The position numbers and the translations under genes were made by a program. From Nemertoderma westbladi (Eukaryota; Animalia; Xenacoelomorpha), in NCBI GenBank assembly GCA_032718475.1, contig JAUCBJ010008172.1, forward strand, positions 1 to 64,000: 64,000 nucleotides of DNA, read 5' to 3'. Shown here piece after piece: positions 7,527-37,789 of the stretch (position 1 is the stretch's first letter; each line of letters starts with the position of its first letter). Under the pieces are notes generated by a model. That model did not search any database, was not told the origin of the DNA, and was given only the letters and a program-made list of their open reading frames with translations.

Positions 7527-10500
7527 TTGAGAGACCGAGAGGGTGAGTTGGAAGGAGAAGGAGACGAGTCGACACGGAACGAGGGTCGACGTACCGATGT
7601 CGCCGGCCAGCCACAGGCCGAGGGCGACGGACGGCCCACCGGAACGGCGACGGTGGGGCCGCCGGTACGACGTCGGACCCGGAGAGACGGAGGAGAGGTC
7701 AGCAACGAGGACGTCGGGGTTTCTGATCGACTTCGACGGGCCTACAACGCGACCCGGAAGCTACTAAAGGAGGCCAAGAAGGGGGCGGAGATAGATGAGA
7801 TGAAGTTAACGAGAGGACTAGGTGAGTCGAATAGACATTTTAGCTATCTAATGCGTTTCGGGCAGAGGGAACTGGCCAAGGAGAGAGCGAGAGGGGTTGC
7901 AGAGGAACTGTGTGATTTATGGCGGTGTAGGGGTATGCAACCTAGTGCAGTGTATGTAGGGCCATACTTAGTCGATGCCCAGGGTGTAAAATTTGAGGGT
8001 TGGAGGAGACCTGAGGAGGGCGAATCCGAGGTTGAGCCCAAGGATTCGATCTCGTCGGTCGGGGGAAGTTCTGGGAAGAGGGGGAAAGCTAGCAGGTCGG
8101 GAAGGCGGAGGGAATCCGTCGTAACCGATAAGTCTGCTACATCCTCCGTGAAAGAAAGACGGGTGAGAGAGATAAATGCCACGTACCATCTCGACCTGAT
8201 AGAACAAGGTCAGAGAGAGTTAAATAGACGGTTAGAGGAGGGGAGAATACAACTAGAGAGGGAAGCGGTACTGATTAGAGAAACCAGGGAGAGGGCCGAG
8301 AAGGCCGTGGAAAGCCTTAAAGAGTGTGAGGAAATAGAAGGAGGGAACAAGAGGAGCGTGTGGCGAGAGAGAAAAGTGAACGCAAAGAGCGTGAGGCAGA
8401 ACGCAAGGAACGTGAGGCGAGAGAGGAAAAGGAACGCAAGGAACGTGAGGCGAGAGAGGAAAAGGAACGCAAGGAACGTTAGGCGAGAGAGGAAAAGGAA
8501 CGCAAGGAACGTGAGGCGAGAGAGGAAAGTGTGCGTAGAGAGCGTGAGGCGAGACGAAGGGAGCGAGCTAAGAGAGAGGCGGAATTGGCCGACCAGAACG
8601 CACGAGAGGATCGGGAGAGAGTAGCAAGAGAGGAGCGTGTGCGAGAGAAATTGGAAAGAGAGCAAAAGGAGCTTATAGAGTACAAAGCTAGACGCACGCG
8701 CGAACTAGAATTGGCGCGGATAGGGGCGTCTGAGAGCGGGACTGGCTCGAATATTTTCGAGGAGCCAAGGGCCGTGGATACATTTATTTATGCCCCACTT
8801 ACAGGGACCGCACGACAGACACAAAACTGGTGTGACCGTACGGGCGGGGGGGGGGGGGGGGGGGGGTAATAATAATGCTACTGTAGACGACGTTAATATT
8901 AATGGTACCGTATCGGATAATCCTAACCAAACTTATATTGCAGGAAATACTTTGCCTGGTAGTAGTAATTTGAATTTAAATACAGATAGCCTAAATAATA
9001 ATTTTGATTTAAACGTGCAAAATAATCCGAATAATAATTTAAATTTAGAAAATAATAATAACTCAAATAATTTAAATAATAATCCAAGCCCAAATTTACA
9101 AAATAATTCAAATAACGTAGTCGCGCAAAATAATCCAAATGATTCTATTTCGAACGAACAAAATAATTCCGTTTCTAATATAGGTGCTATTAACGCGAAC
9201 GCGTCGAACGTGTATGAGCCGACAGACGGCGGCATGGTAGGCCACGTAGTTAGGAGACAGGAGGTGGCGGGGTTGAGTCGACCCGACGGTGGCCTGGTAG
9301 GCCACGTAGTTAGTAGGCAGGAGGTGGCGGGGTTGAGTCGACCCGACGGTGGCCTGGTAGGCCACGTAGTTAGTAGGCAGGAGGTGGTGGGGTTGAGCCA
9401 ACCCGGAGTAGGCCCGATAGGCCAAGTAGTAGTGGAGAGAGAGGCAGGGGTAAGCGAACCCAGCCGCTGTAGAAATATTGTGTCGACTGGAGGGGGTGTA
9501 GAAGAGAAGTTAGAGGTAGCGGTGTGATATGTGGCGAGGGGGGGGGGCTACAGGATCCCCACAACGAGGAGTTAGTGGCGAGAGGGGGGGGCAGAGAGTG
9601 TCCCACAGCCGTCAGCGGATAATGCGCGGGCCGAATCAGGTAAACCGCAACACCCGGCGACGGAGAGTAATAGGGGGATTGCGAGTATCCCCAGCGGCGT
9701 GCGATCGAGCAGAGAGAAGCAGGTTGACGTCGCGAGAGGGCGGACGAAGCGTCGAGCCCGATCAGAAGAGGGAAGAAGAACAGTGGAGTTTAACCGGGAG
9801 GTCGACGAGAGATCTCACGAGCGGGAATACTGCACTGAGAGGAGAAGAAGAGAAGACAGCAGAAGGAGTATCGCCACGAACGACAGGAGAGCGAGGACGA
9901 ATAGCGAGCCGTTGGTGGTGGAGATGGAAAGGGAGAGTCGGTGGGGTCGAACTTCGGGAGATTGCCGTCGTCCCGGAGAGACATGACCTAACGAGACGCG
10001 TTACGCGTCAAGAGAGGGGTACGCGATGTACCGGCACATAGACGAGAGTAGTAGAGAGGGTCGAAGAGAAACTTTCCGACGGGATATACCTACGGATTGA
10101 GAGTACGGTAACCGCGGGGAGGATTATTCGAGAAGAATAAACTTCGATCCCGAGCAATACATACAGACTGTAGGACATACTGTAGGCCTTACTGCACATA
10201 CCATAGGCCATGCTGACAGGAATAATGTAGGCGATAGGATAGCGCGGACGATGGAACTAAACCCGGACGTCGCGGAGTACATACCGGCAGGTAGGCCAGA
10301 AGCTGATAGGCCTATACTGGCACCAGTGCAGCAGTATGACTACAGCACGAAAGGATATAACATATACCCAGGGGAGGGGGGAATTATTGCGGATAGATGC
10401 ATGGGCCCCAATATATTAACATCAACCCCAATACCAAACATACCGGTGGGGGGGGGGGGGGGGGGGCAGGGTGACATTCCCCCATCGCAATATCAACAAT

Positions 10501-11760
10501 ATGCCCCGATAGGAGCAAGGACAACGATAACATTGGATGAAAATAGGTCGTGTGACACAGAAATATGGAGGGGGTTGCTACCCCCAATGATATACCCAAG
10601 CCAAAGAAAGGCAGAAAATAGAACGAGCGGACCGCACCCAACAGGAGAAACTATACAACATCCATCGAATCCATTGGAAGCGCAGGCGATGGGGATGGCC
10701 ACATTGATCGATGCATTAAAAACAAGGATCGAATTACCACCCGTGGAACCATTCAAATTCGATGGGAGTAGGCCGGAAGAATATCTCCAGTTTCGGCGTA
10801 TGTATAGCAATGAAATACTAACAAAGAACTTAACGCAGGCGGAGTGCCTAAAGTATTTGCAAGTATACATAGGAGGCCCAGCATACGACATTGTGAGGCA
10901 ATATCAGGGCATATAGGGCGGCTTCACGACGGCATGGCGGGCACTGGACAGGGAATACGGGCACCCGGCCAAGATCATCAGGCAGACCCTGAGAGGCATA
11001 ACATCGGGTGGCCTACAGGATAATCCCGTTAGCATTAAGACATTTGCGAACAAGGTCGACAAGGCGCTGATCGTGTTAAAGACGCTAGACGCGCCATACG
11101 AACTCAACGTGTCCAACAACATCACCACGATAGCGCAGGCACTACCGATGTGGTTGCGCAACAAGTGGAGGAAAATCGCTTTCTCCACTCGAGATAGGAA
11201 GGGTGCGGAACCGGGTTTAGAAGAAATGTCGAGCTTCTTAAACTACGAAGCTGAACTAATAACCGACCCAGTCTATAGCGAAGATAGCCTGGGGAAGGGA
11301 TCGAAGCCGGATTACCATAGACCGAAACCAGAGCACAATACAGGCTCAGGCAATCACTGCCATATGCAGCGACGCAGGGGACTGCAAGTCCACAGGTAGC
11401 CGAAAGTAAGACCACACCATGGAACGGACAGGGGAACAATAACAACACGAATAAATATAACCCCAGTACGTCCAGTAGGCCGAACCCAAACAATAAGAAT
11501 AGTAGGGACTTTGGTACAAACGCAGCTGCGATACGCGATGCACTGTATAAGGAGGGCTACAACCCAAAGAGCAAATGCCAGCTACATACAAATGCGCTTC
11601 ATCAAACCATGAACTGCAGGTACTGGCAAGCGCTACCTAGGGAAGATCAGATAGATTACGCGAGGAAGAATGAGATCTGCCCGCGATGTGTGATGAGTGG
11701 ACACAGAGCTAGGCAATGCAAGGAGACGCCGGTCAAGTTCGGTCAAAGGAAAGGCCAAAC
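7527..11760 (+). pseudogene. gag: Bel/Pao gag, unusually long and broken by frameshifts and stops
   Basis: ORF pieces 7527-8624, 8531-8869, 8790-9527, 9529-10041, 10251-10916, 11073-11399, 11609-. Bel gag core LPPVEPFKFDGSRPEEY; knuckle CPRCVMSGHRARQC; internal 33-bp and 60-bp tandem repeats and an Asn-rich tract. Confidence 0.85.
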
Positions 11761-11789
11761 GATGGCAACGAGCACAGTAGGGGCGAAAA

Positions 11790-14700
11790 AGAGAGGAACG
11801 GTGCTACTTGGGGTAGTACCCGTGCGAGTGATTGGAGAAGGCAATCGATCAGTAACCACGCTAATGCTGGTTGATAGTGGAGCTGCCTTCACACTAGTCG
11901 AGGATTGGGTGGCCGAAGAAATATGATTGAGAACGAGGCCAAGCAGAATGGCGGTAACAACCATCTCCAGTAAAGATGAGGTCCTGGAGATGAGAACCGG
12001 ACGGTGCACCATCGCAGCAATAGCACCAGGATGCGACTATGGGGCGAGCATCGACCCCATCCAAGTGATAGAGTCAATAAACATCAATGCCAGACGGCCA
12101 ACCAACATCGAGGTCGAACAATATAAATTTCTGGACGATATTGACTTCTCAATCCCAGATGTGGACGTTAGGAAGGTATCCATCATAGTAGGAATGGACT
12201 GCCCAACGGCCCACGAAAGAATGCAAACGGTCTTCGGCGAAGACAATGCAGTATGACCCGGTGGCGATACTGACACCATTCGGGTGGACGCTAAGTGGCC
12301 CAATCAAGAGCAAGATACCATTTAGGATGTCGGAGACATCAGGATGCATGTTCGCGGGAACTATGCAGGAAATGAGTGATGAGAGAGCAGAGGAGCAACT
12401 TAAAAGACTGCTCAGACAGGATTTTGAAGGATTAAAGGAGACCGGGGTCGGGACCTCGGTGGAAGACAAACAGGCTCAGCAGAGCGTAGAGGAGTCTATG
12501 AAGTGCAACGAGGGGCGGTACACCATAGGAATGGTATGGAAACTACCGAAGTTACCACTGCCCGATAATAGAGGGATGGTACTCAGGAGACTCCGCAAGC
12601 TGAAACAAACACTAAAACGGAGCCCCGAGAAGAATGAGTACATCCACAGAACGATTAAGAAGTACGTCGAGAAAGGATGGGCCGTGGAGTTACCAGTCGA
12701 CGAACCAAACACGGACAGGACATATTACCTGCCACTCCACGTGGCTTTAGACCCAAAGAAAGGTAAACTGCGGATGGTAGTTGACGCATCGGCAAAGACC
12801 AACGGAAAATGCTTAAACGACTATCTGTTAGAAGGTCCAAACATAAACAACTCGGGCATAGAGGTCCTACTTAGATTTAGGAATGGGAAACACGCCTTCA
12901 CGTATGACATAGAAGGCATGTTCAACCAAGTCCGTGTAACGGAGGAAGATAGCGACAGTCAACGCTTCTTATGGTATAACGGCGAGGAAGAACCGTCGAT
13001 AATACCAGCGTACAAGATGGTAGTACAGAACATGGGAGCCAAGTCGTCTTCGTTTACGACCACTATGGCAGTGAGAGATACAGTGAAGGGAAAGGAAGAT
13101 AGATACAGCACTAGGGCCGTCGATATGATTCGACGCGGCTTCTACGTAGATGACGGAATGGAGTCTGGAAATACGGTTAAGGAGATACTGGACACAGGGC
13201 GCGAGGTTCGCGACATCCTAAAAGGATCCGGCTTTAACCTGACCAAATTCCAATCCAGTTCGGAGGAATTTATCAAGGTGATAGAGGACAAGAGACCAGA
13301 ATCGACCATGGATAATCCCACAACAGCCAAAGGGCAGGACATGGCGAACAAGAGAACAGAATCTCAACAGAAGGCATTGGGAATCGTGTGGAACAGAGAG
13401 ACAGATGAACTGAAGTATCAGCTGAGCCAGGAGGGCGCAGACATCCACACGAAGAGGGGCTATGTGTCGTATATAGCAAGGATATACGATCCCCTAGGTC
13501 TAGCATCCCCATTATTAGTCACGGGGAAACAGATACTCAAGAGAGTATACAAATTGAAGGATGAGTGGGACGTAGAGGTACCAGAGGAAATCAAGAAACA
13601 GTGGAGTAAGTGGACAGGAGACTTGGAGAAGATAGGAACATATAACATGCCACGAGTGTATTTCCCGGATGGGAACATGACGAATCTGGACCTACACATG
13701 TTCTCCGATGCGTCGTTGGAGCCGTACGGAGCGGCACTCTATTTAGTACAACGAGAGGGGGCTCACAAGCCCAGACTGGCCTTTAGCAAAGCAAAGTCAA
13801 CGCCGCCAGATTCAGCATCAGTTCCCAAATTAGAATTGACAGCTGCGAGACTAGGAGTTAGAGCCACAGCCTACCTAGTGGATACTATTCCCAACATAGT
13901 GGAGACACACTACTGGACGGACTCCATGGTAGTGCTTGGTTGGCTACATAACGAAAGGACGAGATACCCAATATTCGTCGCGAATAGGGTGGACGAGATA
14001 AGGGAGACCACAGAATTGGAAAGGTGGCACTACTGCCCAACGGACGAGAACCCAGCGGACTTGTTATCAAGGGGCGTGGCACGCCACACTTTCTTAAAAA
14101 AGGAAGCATTGTGGCAACACGGGCCGCAGTTTCTGAGCGACAAGGAGGCCTGGCCGCCGATGAGAAAGGTGGACCCGGACTCAGGAGAGGTAGTGTCAGA
14201 AGGAGAAGAGGGAGATTCAGAGGGAGAAGAGATATACTCCCAGATGGTGAGGGAGATAAGGGACGTGCAACCTAAACCAGAAGAACTGTGCGATAACCCG
14301 ACAGATAAACTCCTCAGCTACAGCTCTAGTTGGTATAAGACCAAGAAATTAGTGGCATACTGGAGAGCCTTCGGGAATTTCCTCGCGGGAGTTGGCAAAG
14401 ACAAGAAGATCAGGACAACCATAGATCTGGAAGGAGCGGCCAAGGCAGTCATCCACTATGTACAACGGAAGAACTATGGCGACGAGGTGGAACGCGTCGG
14501 TAACCAACAGCACCTTCGACGGGACAGCGAGCTGATCACGCTGTCGCCACAACTTAATGACGACGGGATTCTAGTAATGAATTCTAGGGTGGGATACAAC
14601 AACAGCATAGTCGTACCACCGAAACCCATCATCATTCCCACAGGATCGCCAATAGTCCACCAGATTATCTGGGACTCCCATAAGTCGATATTGCACGGGG

Positions 14701-15788
14701 GCACCAACCGAACCTTCACGGAGATAAGGAGGACCTTTTGGGTCAAGCAGTTGAGGAAGAAGGTAAAAGCGGTAGTGGGGCAGTGCCAGACCTGCTGACG
14801 AGCGAAGAAGGAGCGAGCCATACAAGAGATGGCACCACTACCAGCGAGTACAGTAAGACAGCACGACCCGCCATTTACACATTGCAGTGTGGACATGTTC
14901 GGGCCAATAAAGATCAAGGTGATGCGGCACACGGAGAAACGCTACGGTATTATCTTCGTATGTAACAACACGCGGGCGGTAGGGATAGAACTCGCCCAAG
15001 ATGCAACCGCATCAGCATTTATTAATGCATTAGAAAGATTCAGAGACCGCAAAGGTGGGACGATCGCAGTAATGTATTCCGACAGCGGAACCAACTTTGT
15101 GGGAGCAGAGAACGAGATGGCAGAGGCCTTGGACATCTTGGAAGGGGAGGAAGTCAGGGCGGCCATGAGACGACGACAAGTAAAGTGGGAGAGAAGGACG
15201 CCGTATGCACCACATACACTAGGATGCGTCGAGAGACTGGTGGGCAGTTCAAAGCGTCTGATGGCGAAGCTGATGAACACCCACATGGTCACTGAGGACG
15301 TCTTAAGGACAGTGCTTGCGAAGTGCGAGGGTATCATTAATAGCAGACCGCTATATCCGGAGAATGATGACCCTGAATCATTAGATGTGCTGACACCCAG
15401 CCATTTTCTAATGGAAAGGCCAGCGACCATCGATATGCGGGGTGTAGACCCAGATGACATACATTCCCGCCAGAGTTGGAAGGTCGCTAAAGCAATAAGC
15501 GCAGAGTATTGGAGGAGGTGGGTTGAGGAATACCTACCCACGCTTCATAAAAGAAGCAAGTGGAGGAAGTCAAATAGGGAGTTAAGAGAGGGAGATCTCG
15601 TAATCGTTACGGATGATACTATCATCAACAACCAGTGGCGGTTGGCGAGAGTCGTAGGCACTTACTCCGATGAGGACGGAAGAGTCCGATCGGTAGAAGT
15701 GCGGATAGGTGGAAAGATCGGTGCGAAAGACAGGAAAACCTACAGGAGAGCTGTAGGGAAATGCTGTCTATTAGAAGGGGCACCTTAG
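11790..15788 (+). pseudogene. pol: Bel/Pao pol: aspartic protease, RT, RNase H, integrase (in-frame stops at 11924 and 14796, frameshift ~12250)
   Basis: LVDSGA (protease); YYLPLH, RMVVDAS, DIEGMF, YVDD (RT); FSDAS, PKLEL, WTDS, NPADLLSRG (Pao RNase H/connection); HHCC, DMFGP, SDSGTNF, ERLVG (integrase). Confidence 0.95.
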
Positions 15789-15894: not shown

Positions 15895-16640
15895 AATTAG
15901 AGTTAGTTAGTTAGGAGTTAGTTAGAAGGTACGTAGTACCTAGAGTTAGTCGGTTAGAAGGTACGTAGTACCTAGAGTTAGTTAGTTAGTCAGTTAGAAG
16001 GTACGTAGTTCCTAGAGTTAGTTAGTTAGTTAGTTAGTCAGTTAGAAGGTACGTAGTACCTAGAGTTAGTTAGTTAGAGAGTTAGTAAGAGTTAGAGGGT
16101 ACGTAGTACCGATAGTTAGTGGAGTTAGGAGTAGTAAGAGGGTACGTAGTACCGTTAGTTAGAGAGTTAGTAAGAGTTAGAGGGTACGTAGTACCGATAG
16201 TTAGTGGAGTTAGAGGTTAGTAAGAGGGTACGTAGTACCGATAGTTAGTGGAGTTAGGAGTAGTAAGAGGGTATGTAGTACCGATAGTTAGTGGAGTTAG
16301 AGGTTAGTAAGAGGGTACGTAGTACCGATAGTTAGTGGAGTTAGAGGTTAGTAAGAGGGTATGTAGTACTGATAGTTAGTGGAGTTAGAGGTTAGTAAGA
16401 GGGTACGTAGTACCGATTAGTAAGAGTAGAGTTGGAAGTTAGTAAGAGGGTACGTAGTACCGTTAGTGGAGTTAGAGAGTAGTAAGAGGGTACGTAGTAC
16501 CGTTAGTAGAGTTAGAGTAAGAGTTAGAGGGTACGTAGTACCGTTAGTTAGTTAGTTAGAGAGTAGTAAGAGGGTATGTAGTACCGATTAGTAAGAGATA
16601 GAGGTGGAAGGGTATACATAGTATAGATATTAGTTAGTAG
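15895..16640 (+). repeat. Array of ~16 GGTAYGTAGTACC mini-hairpins separated by variable GTTAG/GAG-rich linkers
   Basis: Motif counted about 16 times at ~32-50 nt spacing between pol and the extra ORF. Stem GGTAC/GTACC with GTA loop. Confidence 0.9.
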
Positions 16641-17067
16641 TTAGTAGCGAGAGGGGGGCATATGAGTACAGTTGGGTAGATCGTGTAGGCCACGCGACAT
16701 ATACTGCTGTACTGCACAGGCCCATAGCGTAGGTCAGAATGTGGATTATGAAATAGAATAATCCATAAGCAGTAAATAGTAGAAATAGATTAGAAATAAA
16801 AATAGAATAAATAGGGCTAAGAAAATTACAAATGATGGTAACAGGAGGAAAATTATTCTGGAACATAATTAAAGCAACGGACAGAAATTGCAAATAGGGT
16901 ACATTTGTTAGCTACAAAATTAAGTAATAGAAATTAGGCTAAAAGGGCGTAGTTAGATAGAAAATAGGCCATTATCGGACCGTACAGACCATCCTAACTG
17001 CATCACTCACTTATATTGCGCCTTGGTAAGGCACCACCTTATAGGTGAGCGATCGGAGGAGTTCGAA

Positions 17068-19632
17068 ATGGCGGGAAAACTGATCAGAAAGAGAAAGGCG
17101 GAGTCAGGAGGAAAGGAGATACTGGTGGATTTCACCGAGAGGCATCCGGAAGAGAAGACGAGAGGATACTACGAGAGGTTGGAAAAGGGTCACGCGGCAC
17201 GAGCGCTGCAGGACCACTTCCGGGAGATGCACGAACAGCGGCTGGTCGGGACCTACGGGACGCCGTCGCTGGACAACGCGATCTTCCAACACTTCCACTA
17301 CGTGGTGAAAGGGGACGAGGCGAAGTTCGGGATTCCGAAGTACCCGAGGGAGTCACCGAGGAAGGATTGGAAGAGATTCATAGAGTCCGTCAACAGGGGA
17401 GGATATATGATCCTAGACGACGAGGGAACCGTGGAAGACGAGGAGGGTTCGAGACGAGGATCAGCGGGGTCGGCCAGGACCATACTCTTACATTTGGCTG
17501 CGCCAAATGGGGACATTTTCTTATTCGATCTAGGAACGTATGGGAAGAAAGAGGGGCCGAAATTAAACTGGTTGCCGAAAGCGGTGCAAGTCTTGGTAAG
17601 AGAGAAGTCGACGACGAAGGTGGGATCGGCGATTCGCGAGGACGCGGAGAGAATCATCGGTCCGGACGCCACCAACCTCCTGGATATGCAGAAGGTCTTC
17701 ATGGCTATGACGGCACCAGATGGGTTGTGGGTAGTCGGGAACACAGGCCAATGCGGGGCGGTGGCAATGGGCCAGCTATTGGGGCTCGTATGCCACAAAC
17801 CGATGGACTGGGGGAAGTTCAGGGAGGAATACGGAGCAGAACTAGCGAACTCGCTAAAGTGGGGAGCGAGACCGGGAAAGCAAGAGGTATATCAATTCCA
17901 CAGAGGAGCGATAAAGGTATATCAGAAGCGATATATCCTGCAGGAAGATTGGATGATGATAAGTTTACTTAACTTATTCATGACCGTGGTTATCGAGAGG
18001 GAACCAGCGGCATTTCTGTTATCGGGATCACCCCTAAGCTACAGGAGAGCCTTTAAGACGGCCTTCGACGGTCTGGTAGACCACCCGGGGCTGAAGGGCG
18101 AGTCGGTGTACTACAATAGCCGACATCTGATAGACGGGGAGACAGATACGCCGTATCAGAGATGGGAGCAGCTAGAGACGGATAGACGAGAGGCAAAGCG
18201 ACTGGAAGAAGTCGCTAGACGGGAGAGGATAGAAGCAGAGGAGAGGGAGGAGGAGGCCAGGACGCAGAGTTACGGCTTCGAGGAACAGGCAGGCTTAGAC
18301 GAACTTCGTTGGACTTCATCAGGGAGTTCGGGGGAGTCTCTAGGGCGAGAACTGGGATGGACGGTGGGATCGCCGAAACAGTCGACGTCGGGGTTGCAAG
18401 CGATGCCCATACCAGCGGGCGCCGAAGGCGACCAACCGCCAAGGAAGTTAAGGGAGCTAGAGGGATGGAGATCTACGGGCGAGAGCCAAGGCGGGAAGGG
18501 ACATAGTGGATCCATCGGGATACCGGGGTTGGAGCCACTGCCAGAGGAGGAGGAAGACGACGACGAGTTCGGAGAGGTGCCGCCCATCGAGAGGATTGGC
18601 CACTCGGACACGGACTGGGTTGGCGGGAGGGTGGTGACGGCCAGTGGGGCGAGGGCCTTCTGGGATAGACCCGGCAAGCGGGCCTGGGTGCACGAGGAGC
18701 CGGCGATGGATTTCGCGGGGAGCACTATCAGGTTGGGCGAGCAACCAGGGACGGCACCACGGGTAGTATTCGGGGAGACGATGCCCGAGAGGGGCGAGGA
18801 GATCGACATAGACAGGGACACTAACGTGCAGAAGTTCGCCTACCAGCGACTCCACAGACTGCGGAGATTGCTTGGGACGAAAGACGATGTGGGGTGGGAG
18901 ACATTGGTACTCGGTTGCGACTACTGTGGGAGACAGACCCACCAGGAAAGGAGCTGTTTGTACCTGTTCCAAAAGGGAACCTTTTGTCTCTACTGCCGCG
19001 AGTCGAGCCACAGGATGGGGGCGTGTCCACGGTTGCATAACCGATGTCCGAAGTGCAACTTTCGGGGACACTACGGATGCCAGTGCGACTGGATGGATGA
19101 CGAAGAGAAGTTCAGAAGATTCGAGGAGTGGGCCGACGTCGGGGCCATGACGCGCCAGCGCATGAAGGCCCAGGAGTTCAAGTGGGGTTTCTTCCTCATC
19201 AATCAGGAGGCTCACATGGAAATCATAAAGCGGAGGCTACCGTTTACCTATCAAGAGGTAGCAACGGCGGCGTCGTATGCCGGGGTGATGAATACACAAA
19301 GGTATTTGGACAGGTGGACGCCACAGAACCGAGGGGAGTTTAGGGATTTCCTGGCAGAGCACGTGCCGCGGGCAATGAAGATGATCATATGGGACGCCAC
19401 CAGGGGGAGACAACAGGGCCACTTGGAGGGGCCACCCGCGAAGCGATATCGGGAGCTGATAACACCAACACCCAGGGAGCCAACGACCGGGATCAGTAAG
19501 GAGGTGGTGGCGAGGGTCCGAAGACAGAAAGCGGATCCCAGAGGAGCGGTAGTGACCAGGAAACGACCCAGGGAGGAGGACGGCAAAAGGAAAGACTTGA
19601 GGTGGTTCCCAAAGTCAGGGGGGATGAACTGA
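17068..19632 (+). CDS. Extra ORF: DEDDy-type (WRN/EXD2/RNase D-like) 3'-5' exonuclease domain, acidic linker, three CCHC zinc knuckles, basic tail
   Basis: Open frame 17023-19632, first ATG 17068. ExoI ILDDEG (~17410-17427), LLHLA..IFLFDL, LPKAVQVLVREKSTTKVGSAIREDAERI (ExoII), NLLDM, ExoIII-like QKRYILQED. CX2CX4HX4C at 18916-18957, 18985-19026 and 19045-19086. Confidence 0.8.
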   Translation: MAGKLIRKRKAESGGKEILVDFTERHPEEKTRGYYERLEKGHAARALQDHFREMHEQRLVGTYGTPSLDNAIFQHFHYVVKGDEAKFGIPKYPRESPRKDWKRFIESVNRGGYMILDDEGTVEDEEGSRRGSAGSARTILLHLAAPNGDIFLFDLGTYGKKEGPKLNWLPKAVQVLVREKSTTKVGSAIREDAERIIGPDATNLLDMQKVFMAMTAPDGLWVVGNTGQCGAVAMGQLLGLVCHKPMDWGKFREEYGAELANSLKWGARPGKQEVYQFHRGAIKVYQKRYILQEDWMMISLLNLFMTVVIEREPAAFLLSGSPLSYRRAFKTAFDGLVDHPGLKGESVYYNSRHLIDGETDTPYQRWEQLETDRREAKRLEEVARRERIEAEEREEEARTQSYGFEEQAGLDELRWTSSGSSGESLGRELGWTVGSPKQSTSGLQAMPIPAGAEGDQPPRKLRELEGWRSTGESQGGKGHSGSIGIPGLEPLPEEEEDDDEFGEVPPIERIGHSDTDWVGGRVVTASGARAFWDRPGKRAWVHEEPAMDFAGSTIRLGEQPGTAPRVVFGETMPERGEEIDIDRDTNVQKFAYQRLHRLRRLLGTKDDVGWETLVLGCDYCGRQTHQERSCLYLFQKGTFCLYCRESSHRMGACPRLHNRCPKCNFRGHYGCQCDWMDDEEKFRRFEEWADVGAMTRQRMKAQEFKWGFFLINQEAHMEIIKRRLPFTYQEVATAASYAGVMNTQRYLDRWTPQNRGEFRDFLAEHVPRAMKMIIWDATRGRQQGHLEGPPAKRYRELITPTPREPTTGISKEVVARVRRQKADPRGAVVTRKRPREEDGKRKDLRWFPKSGGMN

Positions 19633-20295: not shown

Positions 20296-20333
20296 ATGCT
20301 ATCTTCTCACCGGGAAGATAGCATGGGGGGGAG
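20296..20333 (+). promoter_or_regulatory. Hairpin plus polypurine tract (plus-strand primer)
   Basis: ATGCTATCTTC-N7-GAAGATAGCAT (20296-20324), then GGGGGGGAG (20325-20333) abutting the 3' LTR. Confidence 0.85.
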
Positions 20334-20882
20334 TGTTAGCTTATTCAATTCAGCTAACACAAACCCATAAAGTCAACCGTTAAGCAATATTGGGGGCCAC
20401 GAGATTGGGTAACCAACAACTCGTGTCACCCCAACAAAGTGGGAAGGAGAACCACACAATAAGGGTCAGGGGCCAAACCCCTAACAGAGGGAGAATAGCT
20501 GGAGTGAACGGAAACACTCCAAAGGGCGCCAACAGGGACATTAGCCAATCAGAGGGGGGAAAGGCATCGGTTAGGTACAGTAACAAGGCCAACCCGTGCA
20601 ATATAACCAGTTGGCAGTAATCATCTCATTCAGTTATCTCAGTGTTATTGGTGTTACAGTAGCAATAGTTTAGCTAGGGAAGTACAGGGATTTCAATTAC
20701 CGTTTCCCGCCTTCCGTGTACAACAACGTATTATCAGTTATCTCATTACCAGTTATCTATATCTATATATACCCGAATGTTATACACGACGAATAACGCA
20801 AACTCTTTCACCTTTCACACACGGCGGGGACGCGTGAATTGACAAACCGGATAAACCGGGATCCTTCCTGGATCCCGTCACA
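20334..20882 (+). repeat. 3' LTR (549 bp)
   Basis: Direct repeat of 6727-7275, followed by TSD TTGAC. Confidence 0.97.
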
Positions 20883-20887
20883 TTGAC

Positions 20888-21477
20888 ATTTGTGTTGTTT
20901 CGAGGGATGAAAATAACCTTGGTGTCGAAGTTGTGGGACAAATATATCCCGTTTTTGTTAACGGTTGATGTGTACCTCATACTAACCTCATCGATATTCT
21001 CGTTAACATTCTTATCTATGTTAAAGTCGAGCAAACAGAATTCATCCACTCTGAGATTCAACCCATCGTAATATAGAACACCCTTCCGCTGTCTACCTAT
21101 ATCATCCGCTTCCCAAACGCCGACAAATCGTTGCCCTTCAAAGTCGTAGATATATTCAATGTACCCACAATCTTCGAACTCCATAAAATTCTCATCATGA
21201 ATTTCCTTCTTTTTTGGTTCAATACGGGAAAGAACGACTTTGCTGTAGATGCTTTGTAAGACAGCTAGAATTTTTCGCGAGATAAAAATTGATGCGCCGT
21301 TTTTCCCAATGCGTAAGTACGCATGATTTATTGGTGTTATAAGCAAATTGCCTCGGGTGTATTCCTTGTAATATTCAACGGCTATTTTATTATAATTGAG
21401 GAAGTCAAACAGGAATCTTATGTTCTGGTAAGTAAGACTTACCGATTCTTGCACGACATTGCGTCCTTTGGTATCAC
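20888..21477 (-). pseudogene. Middle part of ORF X copy A
   Basis: KGRNVVQESVSLTY...FIPRNNTNV is colinear with 48478-49060 and bounded by the RTE and Bel insertions. Confidence 0.85.
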
Positions 21478-21924
21478 TACTACTACTACTACTAGGATCG
21501 GCATGCTGCATTGCAGCTGCATTTTTAAGAATGCTGTGCCGGCTTGTCAACAAAATTGCACCGCCACAACTCCCTATCACCCATGACATTTGCTAGATCA
21601 TCCGCATCTTTAAGGCCAGTGTCCTTTAAGATGCGTCTCAAGAAAGTCATGGGCTGTCCACCATGCTTATTCACTCCATGAGGCTGCCAAAGTACAAGAT
21701 TATGCACTGGCTGGTCCTCACGGCGAAAGCAATGTCCTGCAAAGCGGAGGCGATTTTGTTCTAGTGTCAAGCTTGGGGGAACCAATGAGACACCTCCAAT
21801 GTTATATAGTGTCTGGTTGGAGATGTGTGCATTGTACTTGACACAATGAACCCGGCGTAGCATTCTTGTGAATGTGCCATCCAGAGATTTGGTGTCCTCA
21901 GCAGTTAGAGCCCAGCATGGACTC
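21478..21924 (-). mobile_element. 3' part of a second truncated RTE copy with (TAG)n tail
   Basis: Near-identical to 466-905. TSD GTATCAC at 21471-21477 and 34609-34615. Confidence 0.92.
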
Positions 21925-23085
21925 TGTTTGCGCTTTTAAGACCTTTGACAGTTTAACCTGCCAAATTAGGATGTCTTTTGGATGATATATATTCTTTAGC
22001 TTATGACGAGTATTTGATACACTACATTAGCCGAAGCCAGTCTATGCGCAATCATTCACCCGCTGGATATACCCGGGAGACTGAATTCGGAGCTTAATGA
22101 TTGATGGTGTAAGCCTACCGTATTATTCGACTGATCGTAATATATAATCTCTGACAAATATTATTCACTTTCGGGAAATATTAACAGTTCCTTTAGGACG
22201 TGGCGCTCTAAATATATAAACAGAGTTATGGCTTAAACTAGACACAACGAAAAGGCTATAGATTTACGTATATGGCGCATTCTTTAGGAGATGCTTTGTT
22301 ATCAGTTACAATCATACACAATGCTGCACAATACTGCACACTAATCTGCCGACCTTCACTAAATTTGGTCACGTATAAAGAGAGCAATATATGTCGGGCA
22401 TATGAAATAGCATTAGATTCACTTCAAACCACTTAACATAGGTCGCAATCGTTTATTTGTAACCGGTCTCTCTAACCTTTAGTATATCAAGAAGGTGGGG
22501 TATCTGACTATTGATCAGTATTCCGATATAATATTTCATCAACCAATATAATGAATAATCGACAGTAAAAGCAGTAATATTAGTAAGATATGGTAAGTAA
22601 GTAAGATATGAATTGCATAGAATTGGTTTGATAAGATTGATAACAGATATACGTTCTATAATTAAGCCTACTAATGTAAAGCTAAAGAATGCTGATATAC
22701 GGAGGTGCCAAAAGCCGATGTTCTTAGGCTCTGGGCAAAAACATAACACTGAACTACTGAGTTCTGTATCCACCTCCAACACAGAGACAAAAAACGCTCT
22801 GATTGGTCAACCGAACAACGAGAGAACAAAGAAACAAAGAAATGTCGACGTGGCAATATCAGCTGTTAGCCGTCGTCATGGTAGCGACACTGTTTTCAAG
22901 AGTATCGAGCTTATTGCGTCCCGAAATTGCGGATTATGTCCTCTAAAGTACAAATACAGAAGAAATGGCTTTTATGTCCTCTAAAACACCAGTACAGTAA
23001 GGACACGGCCTTTTTATGCCCAGTAAACCAACTACAGAGTACTTTACGGGTAAAATAACCAGCTAATTACGCAAAAGCTTTTACA
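21925..23085 (-). repeat. 3' LTR (1161 bp) of the RT-less element
   Basis: Near-identical to 33315-34488 apart from 7-bp and 6-bp indels and a few substitutions. Confidence 0.95.
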
Positions 23086-23111
23086 CCGCTCCCAGAAAAT
23101 GGGATTTAAGT

Positions 23112-23448
23112 CTATAAAATATAACAAATCACAGTTTCTAAAATATAAAGATACTCTAAACAGTTAGTCTTTCTTACGCAGACGGCGTTTACGCAGTTTT
23201 TTGAGGCTAGCAAGAGTCCTTTTCTCTTTGGGGCGAGCCACTTTACTAGGAGGGCTATAAATCCTGGGTGAAGGGTGCAATATGATTGCATCAGAAGGTG
23301 TAGGATTATGGTCGGGGTATCCGCCGTTTCGATATGCTTCTCCTCGAGCTGATTTTCCTCCGCTCGTAGCTGGATACGTCCATCCAAAACTCTCGCAGAG
23401 AATGGGGTTGTCTAAGTTCGATACCTTCTTAGAGATTCCGGATTTCAC
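23112..23448 (-). CDS. Possible small accessory ORF(s) before the 3' LTR
   Basis: The 91-aa frame (23112-23387) stays open at the same length in the diverged copy (55151-55426). The overlapping 94-aa frame ends in a basic KKLRKRRLRKK tail. The coding frame is uncertain. Confidence 0.3.
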
Positions 23449-23555
23449 AATCGAACTGAGATAAAGACAATTCGTTTATCGCTTGGACTTGCTGTTACAA
23501 CTTACGTTTATCTGAACAAACGCAGGTTTCCTTTCTGATCTTTGTAGAATAGCGT

Positions 23556-24686
23556 TTAACTCGTTTGGTACAACGTTCTCCGCCACTCTGGTGACAGGTT
23601 ATATCGTGTCAAGCCGGGACGATGGTAAGGGTTAAACGGCGATATTAAATGTCCGCGTCCCAATCCGGCTAGGTAGAATGGGCTAATATCTAGGAAGCCC
23701 ACAACTAGGGTGCCACCGACTAATTGTTCAGGTAACACTAGATCTTTGAGCAGTGAGTACAGCTCGGGAGGATCCGTCATACTAATAGGATCAAGAGTCT
23801 GAAGTCTCACTAGGGAATGAGGAGTTCTGATCGAGTATTCCGAAACTCTGATCATTGGTTTATTTAAGGATCGTCTGAGTCGAACGAGCGTAGGTGATAC
23901 ATCGAACAAGTTTCGCTCGAAACTCCCGTAAGTATAGCGAGTAAAACCGTGTTTAAAGCAACGTCTCCGCGGATGTTTATGTCTTTCCGTTTGTTGGTTG
24001 GGTCTTGGGCATTCATCGCAATAATACCCAAAAACGTACGTCTTGTAGGGGAAACGCGAGTGATCTTTCTCCAGCTTACAATATTCCTCCATCCGTTCGA
24101 AGCTATTCGGTACAACAGGTAGCGGTCGATCGGCGGTAAGATACATCATAGGGGAATAGAGCCGTTTGAGTTCTACCATGCGGTCATGATGTATACCTTG
24201 AGGATATCGAGTTTCTAGATTTTGTTGACTGGCAATATTGAGATATGTTTCTATCAGGAATTCCAGATAATCGTTGAAGTCGCTGCGTTTATCCGGCTCC
24301 TCAACGTCTTCTCTTTCGAGTCTGTTTCGAATAGAATTCTCGTGTTCCATTCTCGGTTTATCGTTCCGCCTCCGCTGGGTAGGATATTTCAATCGTACCA
24401 TTTCCCTTTTGGTGTCGACATTGTCCGTATCGTGTAAATCGATAGGATGACCAGTAGTTAAGAAGTCCACATACGTACCATTACGATGCGTATAGCGAGC
24501 GGTGAATTTCTTATAGTCCAACTCACACGTGAGCTGCTCTTGGGACATTGGCGGTTCGATATAACGACCATCGTCCTCCGCAGCAGTTGGACCAGCGTCG
24601 CCGTGTATCAAGCTATCAACAAACGCTTGTAAAGGTAGAGTATATCGCTCCCTGATACCAAGATCATCTTCTATCAACTCAATCAT
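23556..24686 (-). CDS. Accessory ORF of unknown function (376 aa) in the env-like position; possible Zn-binding motif
   Basis: ATG-initiated, with a TAGCAG acceptor-like site just upstream. Motif YYCDECPRP...HKHPRRRCFKH. Decayed homologue at ~55590-56455. Confidence 0.6.
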   Translation of the reverse strand: MIELIEDDLGIRERYTLPLQAFVDSLIHGDAGPTAAEDDGRYIEPPMSQEQLTCELDYKKFTARYTHRNGTYVDFLTTGHPIDLHDTDNVDTKREMVRLKYPTQRRRNDKPRMEHENSIRNRLEREDVEEPDKRSDFNDYLEFLIETYLNIASQQNLETRYPQGIHHDRMVELKRLYSPMMYLTADRPLPVVPNSFERMEEYCKLEKDHSRFPYKTYVFGYYCDECPRPNQQTERHKHPRRRCFKHGFTRYTYGSFERNLFDVSPTLVRLRRSLNKPMIRVSEYSIRTPHSLVRLQTLDPISMTDPPELYSLLKDLVLPEQLVGGTLVVGFLDISPFYLAGLGRGHLISPFNPYHRPGLTRYNLSPEWRRTLYQTS

Positions 24687-25504
24687 ATCTGCTATATAAA
24701 TTTATCCATATTATAATGAGTTTATATTTAGGCGAGCGGGCGTCGCTGCCTACCCCTCTCTGCCCCCGGACAGTGCGAGATCCTCAGCGCTGGTGTACTT
24801 TCGCCGAAGTGCCTATCGCCAATGTCGTAGCTGCACAACGACTACAACAACCAGAACGAGCCACTCCACCGTCCGTCCCAAAGGCTTAGATATACTTCAG
24901 GTTCTTACTGGAGAGTTAGGGTTACTTTCACAATTGCGACTCGCTACTGTAAACACACCTTAGTAGTAACATTCACCTACAAACACACAAATTCAACACA
25001 ACTGCAACAAACTGCACACATTCGGGCCATTTGTCCGTTAGTCAGTACCTTCCAGAATGTCACTGTATTTATTATGTATCCTTGGATACTAGCAGTGCGC
25101 TATTTATTCCCTATGCTATTCAATGGGGCATGCTTTCTATTGTTCTTTTAACTCACTTCTAATTCTAGCGTGGTTGTTGCCATGGTGACATTATGGAAAG
25201 CTAGCGGTAGAATTAGGGTAATTCTCATGCATACAGATCTGGGATGCTATTTAATAGTAATTCTTTAATGGTCAATATCCCCTTTATACATGATTCTATG
25301 AATTTTATCGGCTATTGACTATACATTGGAGATTCTCGCACACAAATACACTTAATAGAGTGAATCTCTGCTCCCATGATCTATTAATTAATGGAATTTT
25401 GGGAATGTTATAAATTGTATAAAATGACAATTTATTAAATTCATTGAAATATCTGAATTTAAATTTATTCCCGTAAATTTTATTATTTAATGTTAAATAA
25501 ACGT

Positions 25505-25800
25505 AATGTTATTCCAGAACGTGTCTGGGGACTGGGATCCTGGATTCTAGGAATTTTGTCTTTTTAAGAGTATCGGTAAGTGCTACGATATCTTAATCGA
25601 CTAGAATGTTAAAGGATCTAAAATTTGACAGATTTTGTAAATATTAATAATTAATATTTAGGATGGGCACCAGTTTATTCCAGAACTTGTCTGGGGACGT
25701 TAACCACTGATTCTAGAATTTTGTCTTTCAAGTATATCGGTGGGTGCCGCGATATCTTAATCGACTAGAATTACAGATGGTCAAAGGGTTTAACAGATTT
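25505..25800 (-). repeat. Two diverged ~125-bp direct repeats with hairpin potential, between gag-PR and the accessory ORF
   Basis: TTATTCCAGAAC..TGTCTGGGGAC...TATCGG..GTGC..CGATATCTTAATCGACTAGAAT occurs twice here and twice again at ~57275-57580. Confidence 0.7.
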
Positions 25801-26318
25801 ATTTTGCGTTATACGCTACTGTTAAAGGGACATCACGCTACTATATGTATTATTTAATATACGGTATGAGAGCAATATCGCACGAAGCAATGTCAGTGTG
25901 AAGAGGCAAGTCGTTTCCAAGGTCTACCCAGAGCTTGGTTTAGCCGAGACATGAGGATCTGAACTTTGCATTCCTAATACTCTGCCTACCAATAATACTT
26001 AAATATAGTAGTGGCTTTATTGTACTTTAATAAGTACGGATATTTCATCTTACTGTAGTCACGTATTTATAATATGATACGGACAGTAAGGAAAGAGAAA
26101 AATAATTATTTCTCGCCGTCGCACTAAATATAATATACATAATTAACTAATAAACGCGAATATATTGCACTAATCTACTAAATAATCGCTAAAATAACAT
26201 TCTACTAAATAAAATTAAAGAAAACGATTATAATAAAATTACATAATAATACATACATAATATAAAATAATAAAAATAAATATAAAATAATGTAGTCACA
26301 CACCCACTCCGTATGTTG

Positions 26319-29300
26319 TTACGTTATGGAGTCCCTAGATATTTGTTGGATTAGGGAGGTGGTCGTGGGAAGAGTATCTTGCCTTCCATAGTTTCCGGAC
26401 AGTTTTCGGTCTCTTTCCAGTAAACATAAACGACCAGCTGGGCGATTGAGTGGTTGTGTTACTTTCTCCGCTCCCTTGGCCTGTCTAATCTTCGCCGGGT
26501 TAAGATGGGGAGGCCATTCATCTTCTTTACTTAGGAAGTCGGGTTCACCTAACCAGTCTGGAGTATCTGTAAGTTCTTGAGGAGTTGCTCCTCTGGAGGC
26601 GATGTCGGCTAGATTGATCGTCTCGGGGCAATGTCTCCGTTGATCTACATTGGAGTTGATGTCGTCATTATCTGAGGAGTATGGTGTTCCCTCAGTTGGG
26701 TCGTCAACTTCACTGCTCTCCACTTCCCGTTCACTTAATTGATATACCTGTTCTTTTGGTAATCTTTCCATAAGAGTTCTACGAGAAGGGCCAGTAAAGT
26801 ACCAACCTACTCTAGTTCTTCCCGCATAAACTTGTAGAGGTTGCGGTTGAGCAGGCCGTTTCTCCAATGTCTCGAGCGCTTCATGCGCATTTTGACCGAT
26901 GAGTATTTGGACTCCAGGGTAATCGGTGTTGAATCTAGGTATTTCAAACTGCTGGGTGAAATCGTCCTCATCCCAGTTATAAGGTTCCACTTGGCTGGTA
27001 GCGAAGTTCTTTATCGCTAACATTTTTACTGACCTTATGCTGTGTTCTCCTAGTTCATCCTGGGGGGTGGACAACGCACCTACATAATAATCTGCGATTA
27101 CTGTAGATTTCCAAACCTGCATAATTCCTGACATGTTTAGCTTAGTTCGGAACTTGGGTTGTCCAGCAAAGATGTCTTCGGCTAGTTCTTTGTCGATGAA
27201 TGTTCCTGTACTACCGGAGTCAAGGAGGGCGTTCACTACATAACTCCTTTTAGGTCCGTGGACCCTTACCTGTACTACAGGAAATTCTCGGATTCCTACA
27301 TTGGAAGGTGGTGCTTTCCAAGATGGTTGTCTGTCAGAAGTAGTTAGGGGGGGCTCGCTGTCGGTGTCTTTTTCATACGTAAGTGCTCGATACACTGCGG
27401 TATTTGTTAGGTAACAGGATTCGTTTTCGTCGGAGAATTCGTCCGTATAGAATCCTTCCATCTCAGAATATTGGTCAGTGTCGTTCACATCACTGAATTG
27501 GACATGTAGTTCGGACTCACTTACCTGACTCGGGCTGTTTCGTTCGAATTCCGTGTGCAACAAGATATGATGTTTTGCGCCGCACTTTGCACACCTTACG
27601 TCGGAGTAACAGGTTCGCCGTTGGTGTCCTCGTCTGAGGCAATTATAACACAACCGCTTATCCCACATGACTTCATGTCTGTCCTTTAGTGATTTCCTCA
27701 GGAATTCATCACACGCACTTAAACGGTGGGGCCCGTCGCACAACACACATTTGGGCTTGATGTTACTTACTTTAACATGTGCTGTGTGGTGCACGCTCGT
27801 TCTTTCCTCGGGCTTTCTCACCTGAATTCTCTTGGGAGACGTAGGAGGAGTTTTTCTTACCTGTTCTCTCCTGTCATTGGTTCGAGACTTGAATTTACTT
27901 ACCTGTTCTTTAGGCGTTTTATTGACATAATAAGCTCTATCAGTGTCTTTCCTGCTATCCTCTCCTTGAGAAGTCTGGCTTTCGCTGTCGTCTGTATAAC
28001 ACACTGGTATTACCCTTCTCCTAGAAACGGGTTTCTCACTTACCTTGTTTTCCAGTGTCTTCTCTCTGGACTGCCTTAGGAGCTGTAATTTCACTTCTCT
28101 ATCTAAGAATGACATGAGATCAGCCATGGTAGGGTCTCGTTGTTGTTGTTCCATCATATATAACACTTTCTTGTCCCAGCGTGTACCTACTCCACCCTTG
28201 GGCAAAGTAGATGCTAAGGCTCCTACAACCATAGAATTCTGGTATTCATGAGACTTACCTAACCAATCTAGTTGTCTACAGATCTCCTGAATCTCGTCGG
28301 AAAACTCTATAATCCCGCTGCTAAGAAACTTTCGGGGCGCCATTAATTTCGCATATAAATACCTAGCTATGTTAGTCCTATTACCATACCTGATGTTTAG
28401 TGTATCCCAAACTTGTCTTAATCCATCAGGATGTCCAATAAACTTTGACGCCATTAACTTGTGAGATCCTTCCAAGCACTCGATGAGGAATCTAAGTTTC
28501 TCTCCGTTGGATAGCACAGAGTTCTGTATGTTATCTTTGTAATATTCATTAAAAGGTAACCATTTCATCTCATCTCCATTGAACTTGACTATCTCTCCAA
28601 CCTTTACCGCTTGCCGGGCTTCGGATTTAGCCATTTGACGCGTAAAACTTTCTTGGGCCATCGTGTTATTTAATATCGAATTATCGGTATAGAAATTTCT
28701 CGGATTATGATCCGGTCTATAGGGAATATCATTATCAACAGGTCTATAATTACCCTTAATAGGGTTGACTATAGGAGTTTCTACTTCGCTAGCAGTATAT
28801 ATGCGTGTAGGCTCCACACCTTGTGCATGAGATACTTCAGACCTAACAGGTTGACACATTGTTACAGGGGGTGGTGGTATACCCTTTTGAGTATTTACTA
28901 ATTTATCGCGTTCTAGCGCGATACTTTGCTGCACTTCTTGCAACTCTAATCTACTTTCCCTTACTGTGCCCTTGAATTGCTGAACGGTCTCCTGCATCTG
29001 TCCGAGCAGGAGATCCATCCCCCGTCGTCTCTCATCCACCCATTCAACCGCCGAAGCGGGATTCGCCAACGTTGTAGCGGGCGGACGAGGGACAACGGGC
29101 GACAAATCATGAATATTTCGCTCGGAGTCCAGGGCATGAACTGTCTCATGGGCTGTTCTGCTGGGCACAGGTAGCTTAGTGCTGTGCAAAGGGAATTGAG
29201 AGGTAGGTTCAGGGAGTACAGGTGTCTCTACGACCGAAAGGGTGGCTTCGGGAAAAGGCCTAATTATTTCAGGCTCATCTACTATAGTAGGGAGTCTCTC

Positions 29301-37771: not shown

Positions 37772-37789
37772 TTTCATTGTCTCATTTTG

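Follow-up and report, generated by a model that had tools for sequence, protein, structure and literature searches.

Analysis of a 64,000-nucleotide stretch of the Nemertoderma westbladi genome (the window: assembly GCA_032718475.1, contig JAUCBJ010008172.1, positions 1 to 64,000 of the forward strand) revealed what is nearly certainly the third gene, ORF3, of a multi-copy Bel/Pao LTR retrotransposon, a gene common to many distantly related elements. ORF3 is present family-wide as a separate ORF after pol with its motif residues, joins a predicted DEDDy 3'-5' exonuclease domain to three CCHC knuckles (Table 1), and is kept by purifying selection. Its protein likely acts on RNA. The best explanation that we can offer, a DEDDy-knuckle third gene that acts on RNA and blunts small-RNA silencing, is given a probability of about 0.4.

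Table 1. Features of the element carrying ORF3, in window coordinates; catalytic residues are numbered from 17023.
Feature	Position	Strand	Basis
5' target-site duplication, TTGAC	6722-6726	.	sequence; identical 5-mer at 20883-20887
5' LTR, 549 bp, TG..CA	6727-7275	+	alignment with 3' LTR
Primer-binding position, start not TGG	7276-7293	+	first 9 nt complementary to LTR 7085-7093
Bel/Pao gag-pol, broken: DUF1759, Pao peptidase A17, RT, integrase, DUF5641	7479-15788	+	domain search
Tandem array, ~44-nt unit, 14.5 copies, 16 short GGTAC-GTA-GTACC-type hairpins	15916-16588	+	lineage-specific
ORF3, 854 aa from first ATG	17068-19632	+	frame open from 16957
Predicted DEDDy 3'-5' exonuclease domain, RNase D/Nibbler type	17233-17997	+	profiles and structure model
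ExoI D132 and E134	17416-17424	+	alignment of relatives
ExoII D207	17641-17643	+	alignment of relatives
Variant ExoIII Y304-x3-E308-D309	17932-17949	+	alignment of relatives
Long charged helix (coiled-coil-like), then ~200 residues predicted disordered	18151-18909	+	structure model
Three CCHC knuckles (18916-19086) and conserved helical extension	18916-19428	+	motif, family profile, structure model
Polypurine tract	20325-20333	+	sequence
3' LTR, 549 bp, TG..CA	20334-20882	+	alignment with 5' LTR
3' target-site duplication, TTGAC	20883-20887	.	sequence

The carrier element is 14.2 kb long, with ORF3 located after the integrase and within the LTRs, which are identical at 544 of 552 positions when aligned locally; 3 of the aligned columns are flanking sequence, and the LTRs themselves differ at 7 sites. 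Its TG..CA LTRs, polypurine tract and short target duplication, together with Pao-type gag and pol domains in the order RT-RNase H-integrase, are those of the Belpaoviridae. Pfam recognised Peptidase_A17 (4.7e-40), DUF5641 (2.5e-25) and Integrase_H2C2 (2.1e-10) in gag-pol, and its DUF1759 and RVT_1 matches fall below their curated cut-offs. The several stops and frameshifts noticed in the preliminary description were placed at 10914, 11924 and 14796 (in-frame stops) and near 11320-11400 and 12190-12255 (frame changes). A quick RT tree, built without named Bel/Pao clade references or non-Bel outgroups, showed a long branch (2.76).

The reading frame at 17023-19632 was indeed found to be uninterrupted for 869 codons. 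Codon 1 is TTG, and ATG 17068 appears to be the best start: it is the first ATG, has G at both -3 and +4, and is close to where homology to other copies loosely stops (17052/17061). A CTAAC resembling a branch point, near 16995, and the AG at 17043-17044 were noted by eye as candidate splice signals. An intact ORF3 beside a broken gag-pol has a chance probability of ~0.11 under an even break rate, which is weak evidence alone; this argument was therefore dropped as stand-alone evidence, and the case for selection is made from variants and dN/dS instead. Among the listed ORF3 variants, 29 of 40 are synonymous against 11.4 expected, and a count of at least 29 was reached in 0 of 10000 simulations. 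Comparison between relatives, a check that the preliminary description had called for, gave dN/dS values of 0.036-0.262 in 26 of 28 pairs, the remaining two being saturated at synonymous sites. An env or env-like identity, already discounted in the preliminary description, was rejected for want of both a TM anchor and a fusion-protein fold: the highest 19-residue Kyte-Doolittle mean, 1.35, falls within a helix of the predicted nuclease fold and thus gives no sign of a TM segment.

Nor is ORF3 the one-off capture that had been entertained as a refutation, since Bel/Pao pol lies upstream on the same strand in 30 of the 32 relatives with at least 5 kb of upstream sequence, with the same Pao-type domain set as in the window element. 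In none of 36 relatives is ORF3 fused to integrase. The gene is retained over RT lineages only 27-33% identical to the window element, and the nuclease and RT trees give the same subgroups. Every ORF3 carrier falls on one side of a branch of the RT tree (support 84); the comparison rows were limited to 49 of the nearest 120 RT matches, with ORF3 status not established, so a single origin of the carriers is not claimed.

The N-terminal domain is predicted to adopt an RNase H-like DEDD fold of the RNase D type. Its model (pLDDT 83.6, pTM 0.86) superimposes on the Nibbler EXO domain with Z 14.7 and rmsd 3.2 over 202 aligned residues, and ranks 1-20 of the structure search are DEDD-superfamily folds throughout, as the preliminary description had anticipated. 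A family profile searched against the PDB matched EXD2 (E 3.6e-14), aligning with its DxE and ExoII D, and trypanosome RNase D (E 2.4e-9); a profile of the window nuclease domain with 40 locus-derived domains found EXD2 at 1e-11. The gene is invisible to simpler searches: Pfam assigned no family to ORF3 and a single sub-threshold DNA_pol_A_exo1 match across 42 homologues, PDB phmmer with the single sequence returned weak knuckle matches and missed the nuclease, and word-indexed protein searches gave no matches. Other structural neighbours include an apicoplast polymerase (Z 13.7), WRN (Z 13.5), TbRND (Z 12.8) and Egalitarian (Z 12.1), and a Foldseek search with the full ORF3 model was headed by Egalitarian bound to RNA localisation signals, with one structure containing I-factor RNA. 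Because these neighbours comprise both DNA-acting enzymes and an RNA adaptor, the substrate cannot be read off the fold.

The ExoI DxE, ExoII D and variant ExoIII motifs and the three CX2CX4HX4C knuckles were all confirmed in the order that the preliminary description gave, the knuckles beginning at residues 632, 655 and 675 (numbered from 17023). Judged from the alignment, the active site in the family of the window element looks competent, with D, E, D and an E that replaces the last D. This E308 occupies the column where most intact relatives carry D, with D309 one residue on, and the variants listed for ExoIII, at positions 17946 and 17949, are synonymous. Since E at this position is also common in a catalytically dead clade, the activity of the window copy is uncertain. 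All four acidic residues are retained in 22 of 45 scorable relatives, spread over deep lineages (13 of 59 rows were dropped from this scoring owing to a gap at a catalytic column). The dead domain was found in 13 of 41 rows, which form one clade (SH-aLRT 99) that keeps the knuckle module; two close elements, L047 and L059, have the knuckle module with no detectable nuclease. In the structure model, numbered from ATG 17068, a helix spans residues 362-409 and pLDDT is below 50 over 409-614. The knuckle module that follows, with its helical extension, shows the strongest conservation in the ORF3 family. The knuckle pattern had no matches in viral contigs, the module profile had none in the PDB, and its matches against Atlas were all below 0.9; the knuckle-profile match was absent at 4 of 120 loci, which were dropped (L014, L019, L041 and L071, the last of which looks like a chance match).

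In the dead clade the nuclease domain is under purifying selection despite the loss of its catalytic acids, which argues against a purely catalytic reading; as ORF3 is kept by selection even without cutting residues, it likely works by gripping RNA. In the mechanism proposed, the knuckles would hold on to single-stranded RNA, and the nuclease domain tethered to them would engage its 3' end, much as trypanosome RNase D does. The RNA would then be trimmed in the family of the window element, where the site looks competent, and only bound or capped in the dead clade. If this RNA is a host piRNA or siRNA, or a precursor, its over-trimming or sequestration could leave fewer guides on element transcripts. 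That host small-RNA silencing is the target, and is blunted, we regard as somewhat short of an even chance; a stand-alone, trans-acting ORF would suit a suppressor. The full scenario of an ancient, unannotated Bel/Pao accessory gene family that counters piRNA/siRNA silencing in animals, where small-RNA precursors are captured by the knuckles and over-trimmed by a Nibbler-like domain, and where the protein of one large clade has become a dead decoy that works through binding alone, seems rather unlikely. Two points of general background count against anti-silencing: an arms-race signature, not strong purifying selection, is often expected of suppressors, and mature piRNAs are usually 2'-O-methylated and resistant to such enzymes.

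That catalysis was lost in a whole clade is as compatible with a function in RNA chaperoning or transport as with anti-silencing, and ORF3 could instead serve the RNA of the element itself, as a chaperone, packaging factor or Egalitarian-like transport adaptor whose nuclease is secondary, for example in trimming the transcript 3' end. This alternative, though less likely than not, carries real weight: the knuckles are the most conserved part, the nuclease is catalytically dead in one clade and escapes detection in L047 and L059, Egalitarian heads the list for the full model, and the knuckles weakly resemble nucleocapsid and LIN28 fingers (E at least 0.24). A pure adaptor would, however, have no need of the four acidic residues that so many relatives keep; these elements already carry knuckle-type motifs in gag (a weak match), and a search confined to tandem repeats found no conserved cis-element between pol and the nuclease region. 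A role as a proofreading or end-trimming exonuclease for element cDNA is improbable. RTs lack proofreading, and the structural neighbours include WRN and polymerase proofreading domains, but the absence of any fusion to pol in 36 relatives leaves delivery into the particle unexplained, and an 11-row clade of the RT tree is thriving although its nuclease domain, kept under purifying selection, is dead. The DEDDy domain of Dada DNA transposons, proposed in the available part of PMC3706591 to process cleaved 3' ends, does offer this role a parallel. That ORF3 feeds host silencing or defence, in a self-limiting or host-beneficial manner, for example through mut-7-like production of small RNAs or an antiviral activity, is decidedly improbable. 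In its favour, the nearest solved folds are those of the piRNA-pathway proteins Nibbler and Exd1, and a mut-7-like function is considered in the available text of Rodriguez et al. (PMC5408684). Against it, the same text expects self-limiting elements to be out-competed, and ORF3 stays within mobile, LTR-bounded, multi-copy elements.

The preliminary description had also suggested that ORF3 matures a self-primer at ~7093 and belongs, along with the hairpin array and an LTR-leader helix, to a single system, which now appears extremely improbable. The window copy does lack a TGG primer site, the 9-nt complement between LTR and primer site is matched in length by only 86 of 5000 shuffled LTRs, and the 7020-7350 region is predicted to fold more stably than its shuffled versions (z -3.4). 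In its minimum-energy fold, however, LTR segment 7085-7093 pairs instead with ~7228-7237, and 15 of the 17 ORF3 relatives with at least 8 kb upstream have TGG tRNA-type primer sites. An array comparable to that at 15916-16588 was seen between pol and nuclease in none of 36 relatives, where the sole repeats are three short ones of 1.9-4.2 copies; Rfam gave three sub-threshold matches, regarded as chance. A 3'-5' exonuclease, moreover, can expose an internal 3' end only once the strand has been cut.

Natural copies of the gene come in three forms (intact site, dead site and no detectable nuclease), and with this set the question of its role can be put directly to purified proteins. Were host small RNA the target, ORF3 would represent a rare case of a transposon encoding a suppressor of an animal piRNA/siRNA pathway, made from the pathway's own enzyme fold.

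In common with the Belpaoviridae, the element has LTRs, a polypurine tract, gag, and a pol that encodes Pao peptidase, RT and integrase/DUF5641. The ICTV profile of that family (PMC8742986) gives gag, pol and env-like genes only, a primer site for tRNA and a length of 4.2-10 kb; the element differs in its 14.2-kb length, its enzyme-like ORF3 and its primer site without TGG. No Bel/Pao exonuclease-knuckle ORF came up in the article texts searched, nor did the papers examined that mention Cer13 give the link between an RNase D-like domain and Cer13 that the preliminary description had mentioned. The preliminary description had overlooked the nearest precedent in print: a DEDDy-exonuclease ORF3 is published for the bdelloid rotifer LTR retrotransposons Juno and Vesta, and is common to Athena/Terminon retroelements (Rodriguez et al. 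2017, PMC5408684). As described in the available part of that paper, the rotifer and Bel/Pao genes both place an RNase D-like DEDDy domain in a separate, non-env ORF3 downstream of pol, with a variant catalytic motif (DEED in the rotifer ORFs), and the nuclease is putative in both. The rotifer carriers are rotifer-specific, dUTPase-bearing lineages, and a Cys-His-Cys motif is described there in two Vesta ORFs, whereas our carriers are Bel/Pao elements with a long ORF3 ending in a triple CCHC. The same part of the paper reports that elements with an enzymatic ORF3 did not gain unambiguously in copy number, which also counts against an anti-silencing role, and that the DEDDy ORF3, whose role it leaves open, did not depart clearly from neutrality; by comparison of descriptions, ORF3 here differs in being under purifying selection over divergent RT lineages with the nuclease intact, dead or absent. 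DEDDy third ORFs in rotifer LTR elements were therefore already known, and what appears to be new is a Pfam-invisible nuclease-knuckle gene in deeply diverged Bel/Pao lineages.

Dada DNA transposons likewise encode a DEDDy exonuclease, which the available text of PMC3706591 places inside the DDE transposase of a DNA transposon and not in a separate knuckle-bearing ORF. Among cellular proteins, Nibbler/Mut-7, EXD2, EXD1, WRN exonuclease and Egalitarian share the predicted fold and motif layout, but at 11-22% identity and with partner domains that were not detected in ORF3. Nibbler gives the top Z scores (14.7 and 14.6) and EXD2 the top sequence-profile match, and Z scores span only 14.7-11.7 among the Nibbler/Mut-7, EXD1, EXD2 and TbRND families; with structure pointing to one enzyme and profiles to another, the donor cannot be narrowed to a single protein. 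Trypanosoma brucei RNase D (TbRND; PDB 7c42-7c4c; PMC7797062) has the same order of a DEDDy exonuclease followed by CCHC zinc fingers, and its family-profile match spans both domains. TbRND is a cellular enzyme with four fingers near the nuclease, whereas the ORF3 model has a charged helix and ~200 probably disordered residues between the domains and a family-specific helical extension after the knuckles. In TbRND, according to the available part of PMC7797062, the zinc-finger domain provides RNA binding and raises cleavage.

ORF3, the third gene of the Bel/Pao element, lies in a reading frame without stops between 16957 and 19632. The 869-codon frame of the preliminary description was confirmed, but its first codon is TTG; the first ATG is at 17068, which gives 854 aa. 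Pfam returned no match to ORF3. Among 1.84 billion representatives searched without filtering, 81 matched at E 0.001 or better, in every case with the best stretch in the knuckle region, and alignment revealed an N-terminal domain with ExoI, II and III motifs common to the window protein and 36 of the longer matches. In the PDB, the family profile matches EXD2 (3.6e-14) and trypanosome RNase D (2.4e-9, both domains covered), with further matches to WRN, Egalitarian and Mut-7/Nibbler. In the full ORF3 model (mean pLDDT 63.9), a charged helix and approximately 200 disordered residues lie between two ordered regions, and the Foldseek matches listed for it are RNase D-type proteins throughout. Modeled alone, the nuclease domain reached pLDDT 83.6 and pTM 0.86; when it was compared with 48,161 chains, Nibbler ranked first (Z 14.7, rmsd 3.2, 202 aligned), followed by apicoplast polymerase (13.7), WRN (13.5), RRP6 (13.1), RNase D (13.0), TbRND (12.8), Egalitarian (12.1) and Exd1 (11.7). 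The Atlas agrees with an RNase D-type fold (score 0.94 to a cluster where half of the members carry PF01612). The RNase D-like layout read from the sequence is supported, and the DEDDy fold is secure as a prediction; its donor is not. Numbered from 17023, the window copy keeps D132, E134, D207 and Y304; E308 stands at a position occupied by D in most intact relatives, and D309 adjoins it.

A degenerate knuckle pattern retrieved at least 120 metagenome loci (approximately 300 estimated; flanks for 80), which are not independent because most share a few contig-name prefixes; 116 of the 120 also match the knuckle profile. ORF3 is a family trait rather than a one-off capture: of the 32 loci with at least 5 kb upstream, 30 are preceded on the same strand by a Bel/Pao RT or integrase, and the nuclease domain is present in 30. 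In the two loci without pol (L012 and L022) the ORFs are short or split. Pfam detected the Pao peptidase and DUF5641 in all six long polyproteins checked, and DUF5641 in two further partial ones. ORF3 is fused to integrase in none of the 36 loci having both. Nuclease-profile E-values for the loci are somewhat circular, since the profile was built partly from their close relatives; a profile of 41 nuclease domains matches EXD2 independently (1e-11). The carriers' RTs show 27–33% identity to the window RT and form several deep lineages. The same subgroups appear in the nuclease tree (both trees are quick, with a long window branch in each), and this agreement suggests vertical inheritance over a long time. 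Very long ORF3s, of 1,300–1,600 codons stop to stop, occur at L005:40-4815, L051:5002-9657, L043:1226-5476 and L015:335-4318; the last three have 500–950 residues ahead of the nuclease, none matched by Pfam.

The nuclease exists in three states. D, E, D and D/E are kept in 22/45 scorable relatives (23/46 when the window is counted; 13 gapped rows were left out). One clade, comprising 13 of 41 rows (SH-aLRT 99), lacks the ExoI acids, is mirrored by an 11-row RT clade (support 100) and is still under purifying selection (13 pairs, dN/dS 0.036–0.262), and in a 6-row clade ExoI and III are retained and ExoII is altered. No nuclease was detectable in the long ORF3s L047:3341-6529 and L059:6880-9648, which share the knuckle module behind a different charged N-terminal region. 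All invariant columns of the family fall within the knuckle module; the loci were selected on knuckles, so knuckle-less versions lie beyond reach of the scan. Among the best-supported 40 of 103 variant sites in the window family's nuclease region, 31 fall at third codon positions. Synonymous changes number 29, versus an expectation of 11.4 ± 2.8 given the substitution types involved (29 was reached in 0/10,000 simulations); there are no indels among the variants listed. Nei–Gojobori dN/dS of the domain, proposed earlier as a check, is 0.036–0.262 in 26/28 pairs of relatives at 60–99.5% amino-acid identity (two saturated; the pairs are overlapping, and filtering on identity limits dN). Selection on the gene is purifying.

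The element housing ORF3 is a 14,156 bp LTR retrotransposon whose gag-pol is Bel/Pao by Pfam (Peptidase_A17 4.7e-40, DUF5641 2.5e-25, Integrase_H2C2 2.1e-10; DUF1759 and RVT_1 below cut-off) and is damaged, as had been claimed: between 10101 and 15788 it has at least three stops and two changes of frame. The family has many copies; the 721-nt nuclease region is matched at 80–100% identity by 1,735, 1,103 and 993 contigs in three runs (two samples) and by 3 in a fourth run. The data sets listed with matches all bear a single organism label. Empty-site joints, present in all four runs, may come from paralogues of the repeat that the element splits.

Features of the element and its surroundings in the window
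Feature	Position (strand)	Description
LTRs	6727-7275 and 20334-20882	549 bp each; 7 internal differences
Target duplication		TTGAC; flanks element on both sides
Hairpin array	15916-16588	between pol and ORF3; 16 five-base-pair hairpins, GUA-type loops, (GTTA)n/purine-rich linkers
Polypurine tract	20325-20333	
Split repeat	5143-6726 and 20883-21470 (-)	ORF of another multi-copy repeat, split by the element
Related copies of split repeat	48202-49401 (+) and 50994-52551	first: unbroken 399-codon version of the ORF, no Pfam match
Second Bel/Pao-type element	23012-32172 and 55051-63157 (-)	two copies, 84–96% alike in sampled blocks; gag and protease (DUF1759 match), most of RT apparently missing
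ORF in second element region	23556-24701	381 codons; no Pfam match
ORF run	37752-43155 (+)	by eye: polymerase-like piece, packaging-ATPase-like ORF (40026-40769), integrase-like piece (41735-42280); possibly a Polinton/Maverick-type element; Pfam: weak AAA match only
Host gene fragment	2703-3215 (-)	two WW domains
Non-LTR retrotransposon RT pieces	527-1414 (-); repeats at 21525-21935 and 33315-34363	near-identical copies

As one possibility, ORF3 had been proposed to mature the 3′ end of a self-primer, perhaps forming one system with the hairpin array and the LTR-leader helix. The window-copy primer site does lack TGG, and a 9-nt complement to it lies at 7085-7093 (a match this long arises in 86 of 5000 shuffles). 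The predicted fold pairs this segment elsewhere; the LTR/leader region 7060-7300 is predicted to fold better than shuffled sequence (z -3.4): a 13-bp helix links approximately 7060-7072 to the leader, and the end of the LTR forms a 9-bp hairpin. Against the proposal, 15/17 relatives with RT and at least 8 kb upstream have a TGG tRNA-type site (matched by pattern close to the start of the contig and assessed by eye), and an array like the window's was found in 0/36; its length also differs among copies, as joints show. The single system is not supported: the non-TGG primer site and the array are local to the window lineage, the gene does not require them, and primer maturation is very improbable as the role of ORF3.

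According to PMC7797062, the zinc fingers of TbRND provide RNA binding and strongly boost trimming. By analogy with this architecture, the ORF3 knuckles would bind RNA as their core function, and cutting would be optional. We favor host small RNAs as the target, with ORF3 acting in counter-silencing (probability roughly 0.4), because ORF3 is free-standing, trans-acting, of a piRNA-pathway fold and kept as enzyme or decoy. Close behind, as a serious if tentative competitor, comes an Egalitarian-like function acting on RNA of the element itself. Proofreading of cDNA fits worse and is unlikely, and a role serving the host, which also fits worse, is slightly less probable still.

The exonuclease–knuckle ORF3 is a real observation. 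The ICTV Belpaoviridae profile (PMC8742986) describes gag, pol and env-like genes only, neither a Bel/Pao survey (PMC3118150) nor an LTR network paper (PMC2774666) uses the term "exonuclease" in its main text, and what four papers say about Cer13, for which an RNase D-like domain had been suggested, mentions no nuclease. A Bel/Pao nuclease–knuckle ORF was not found in the literature searched, which lay outside Repbase, GyDB, subscription papers and supplements. DEDDy domains also occur in Dada transposons (PMC3706591). DEDDy ORF3s of LTR elements are already known from the rotifer elements Juno and Vesta (PMC5408684; cited in the reviews PMC5718144 and PMC6338049), and the Bel/Pao gene with its knuckles is a variant of that arrangement.
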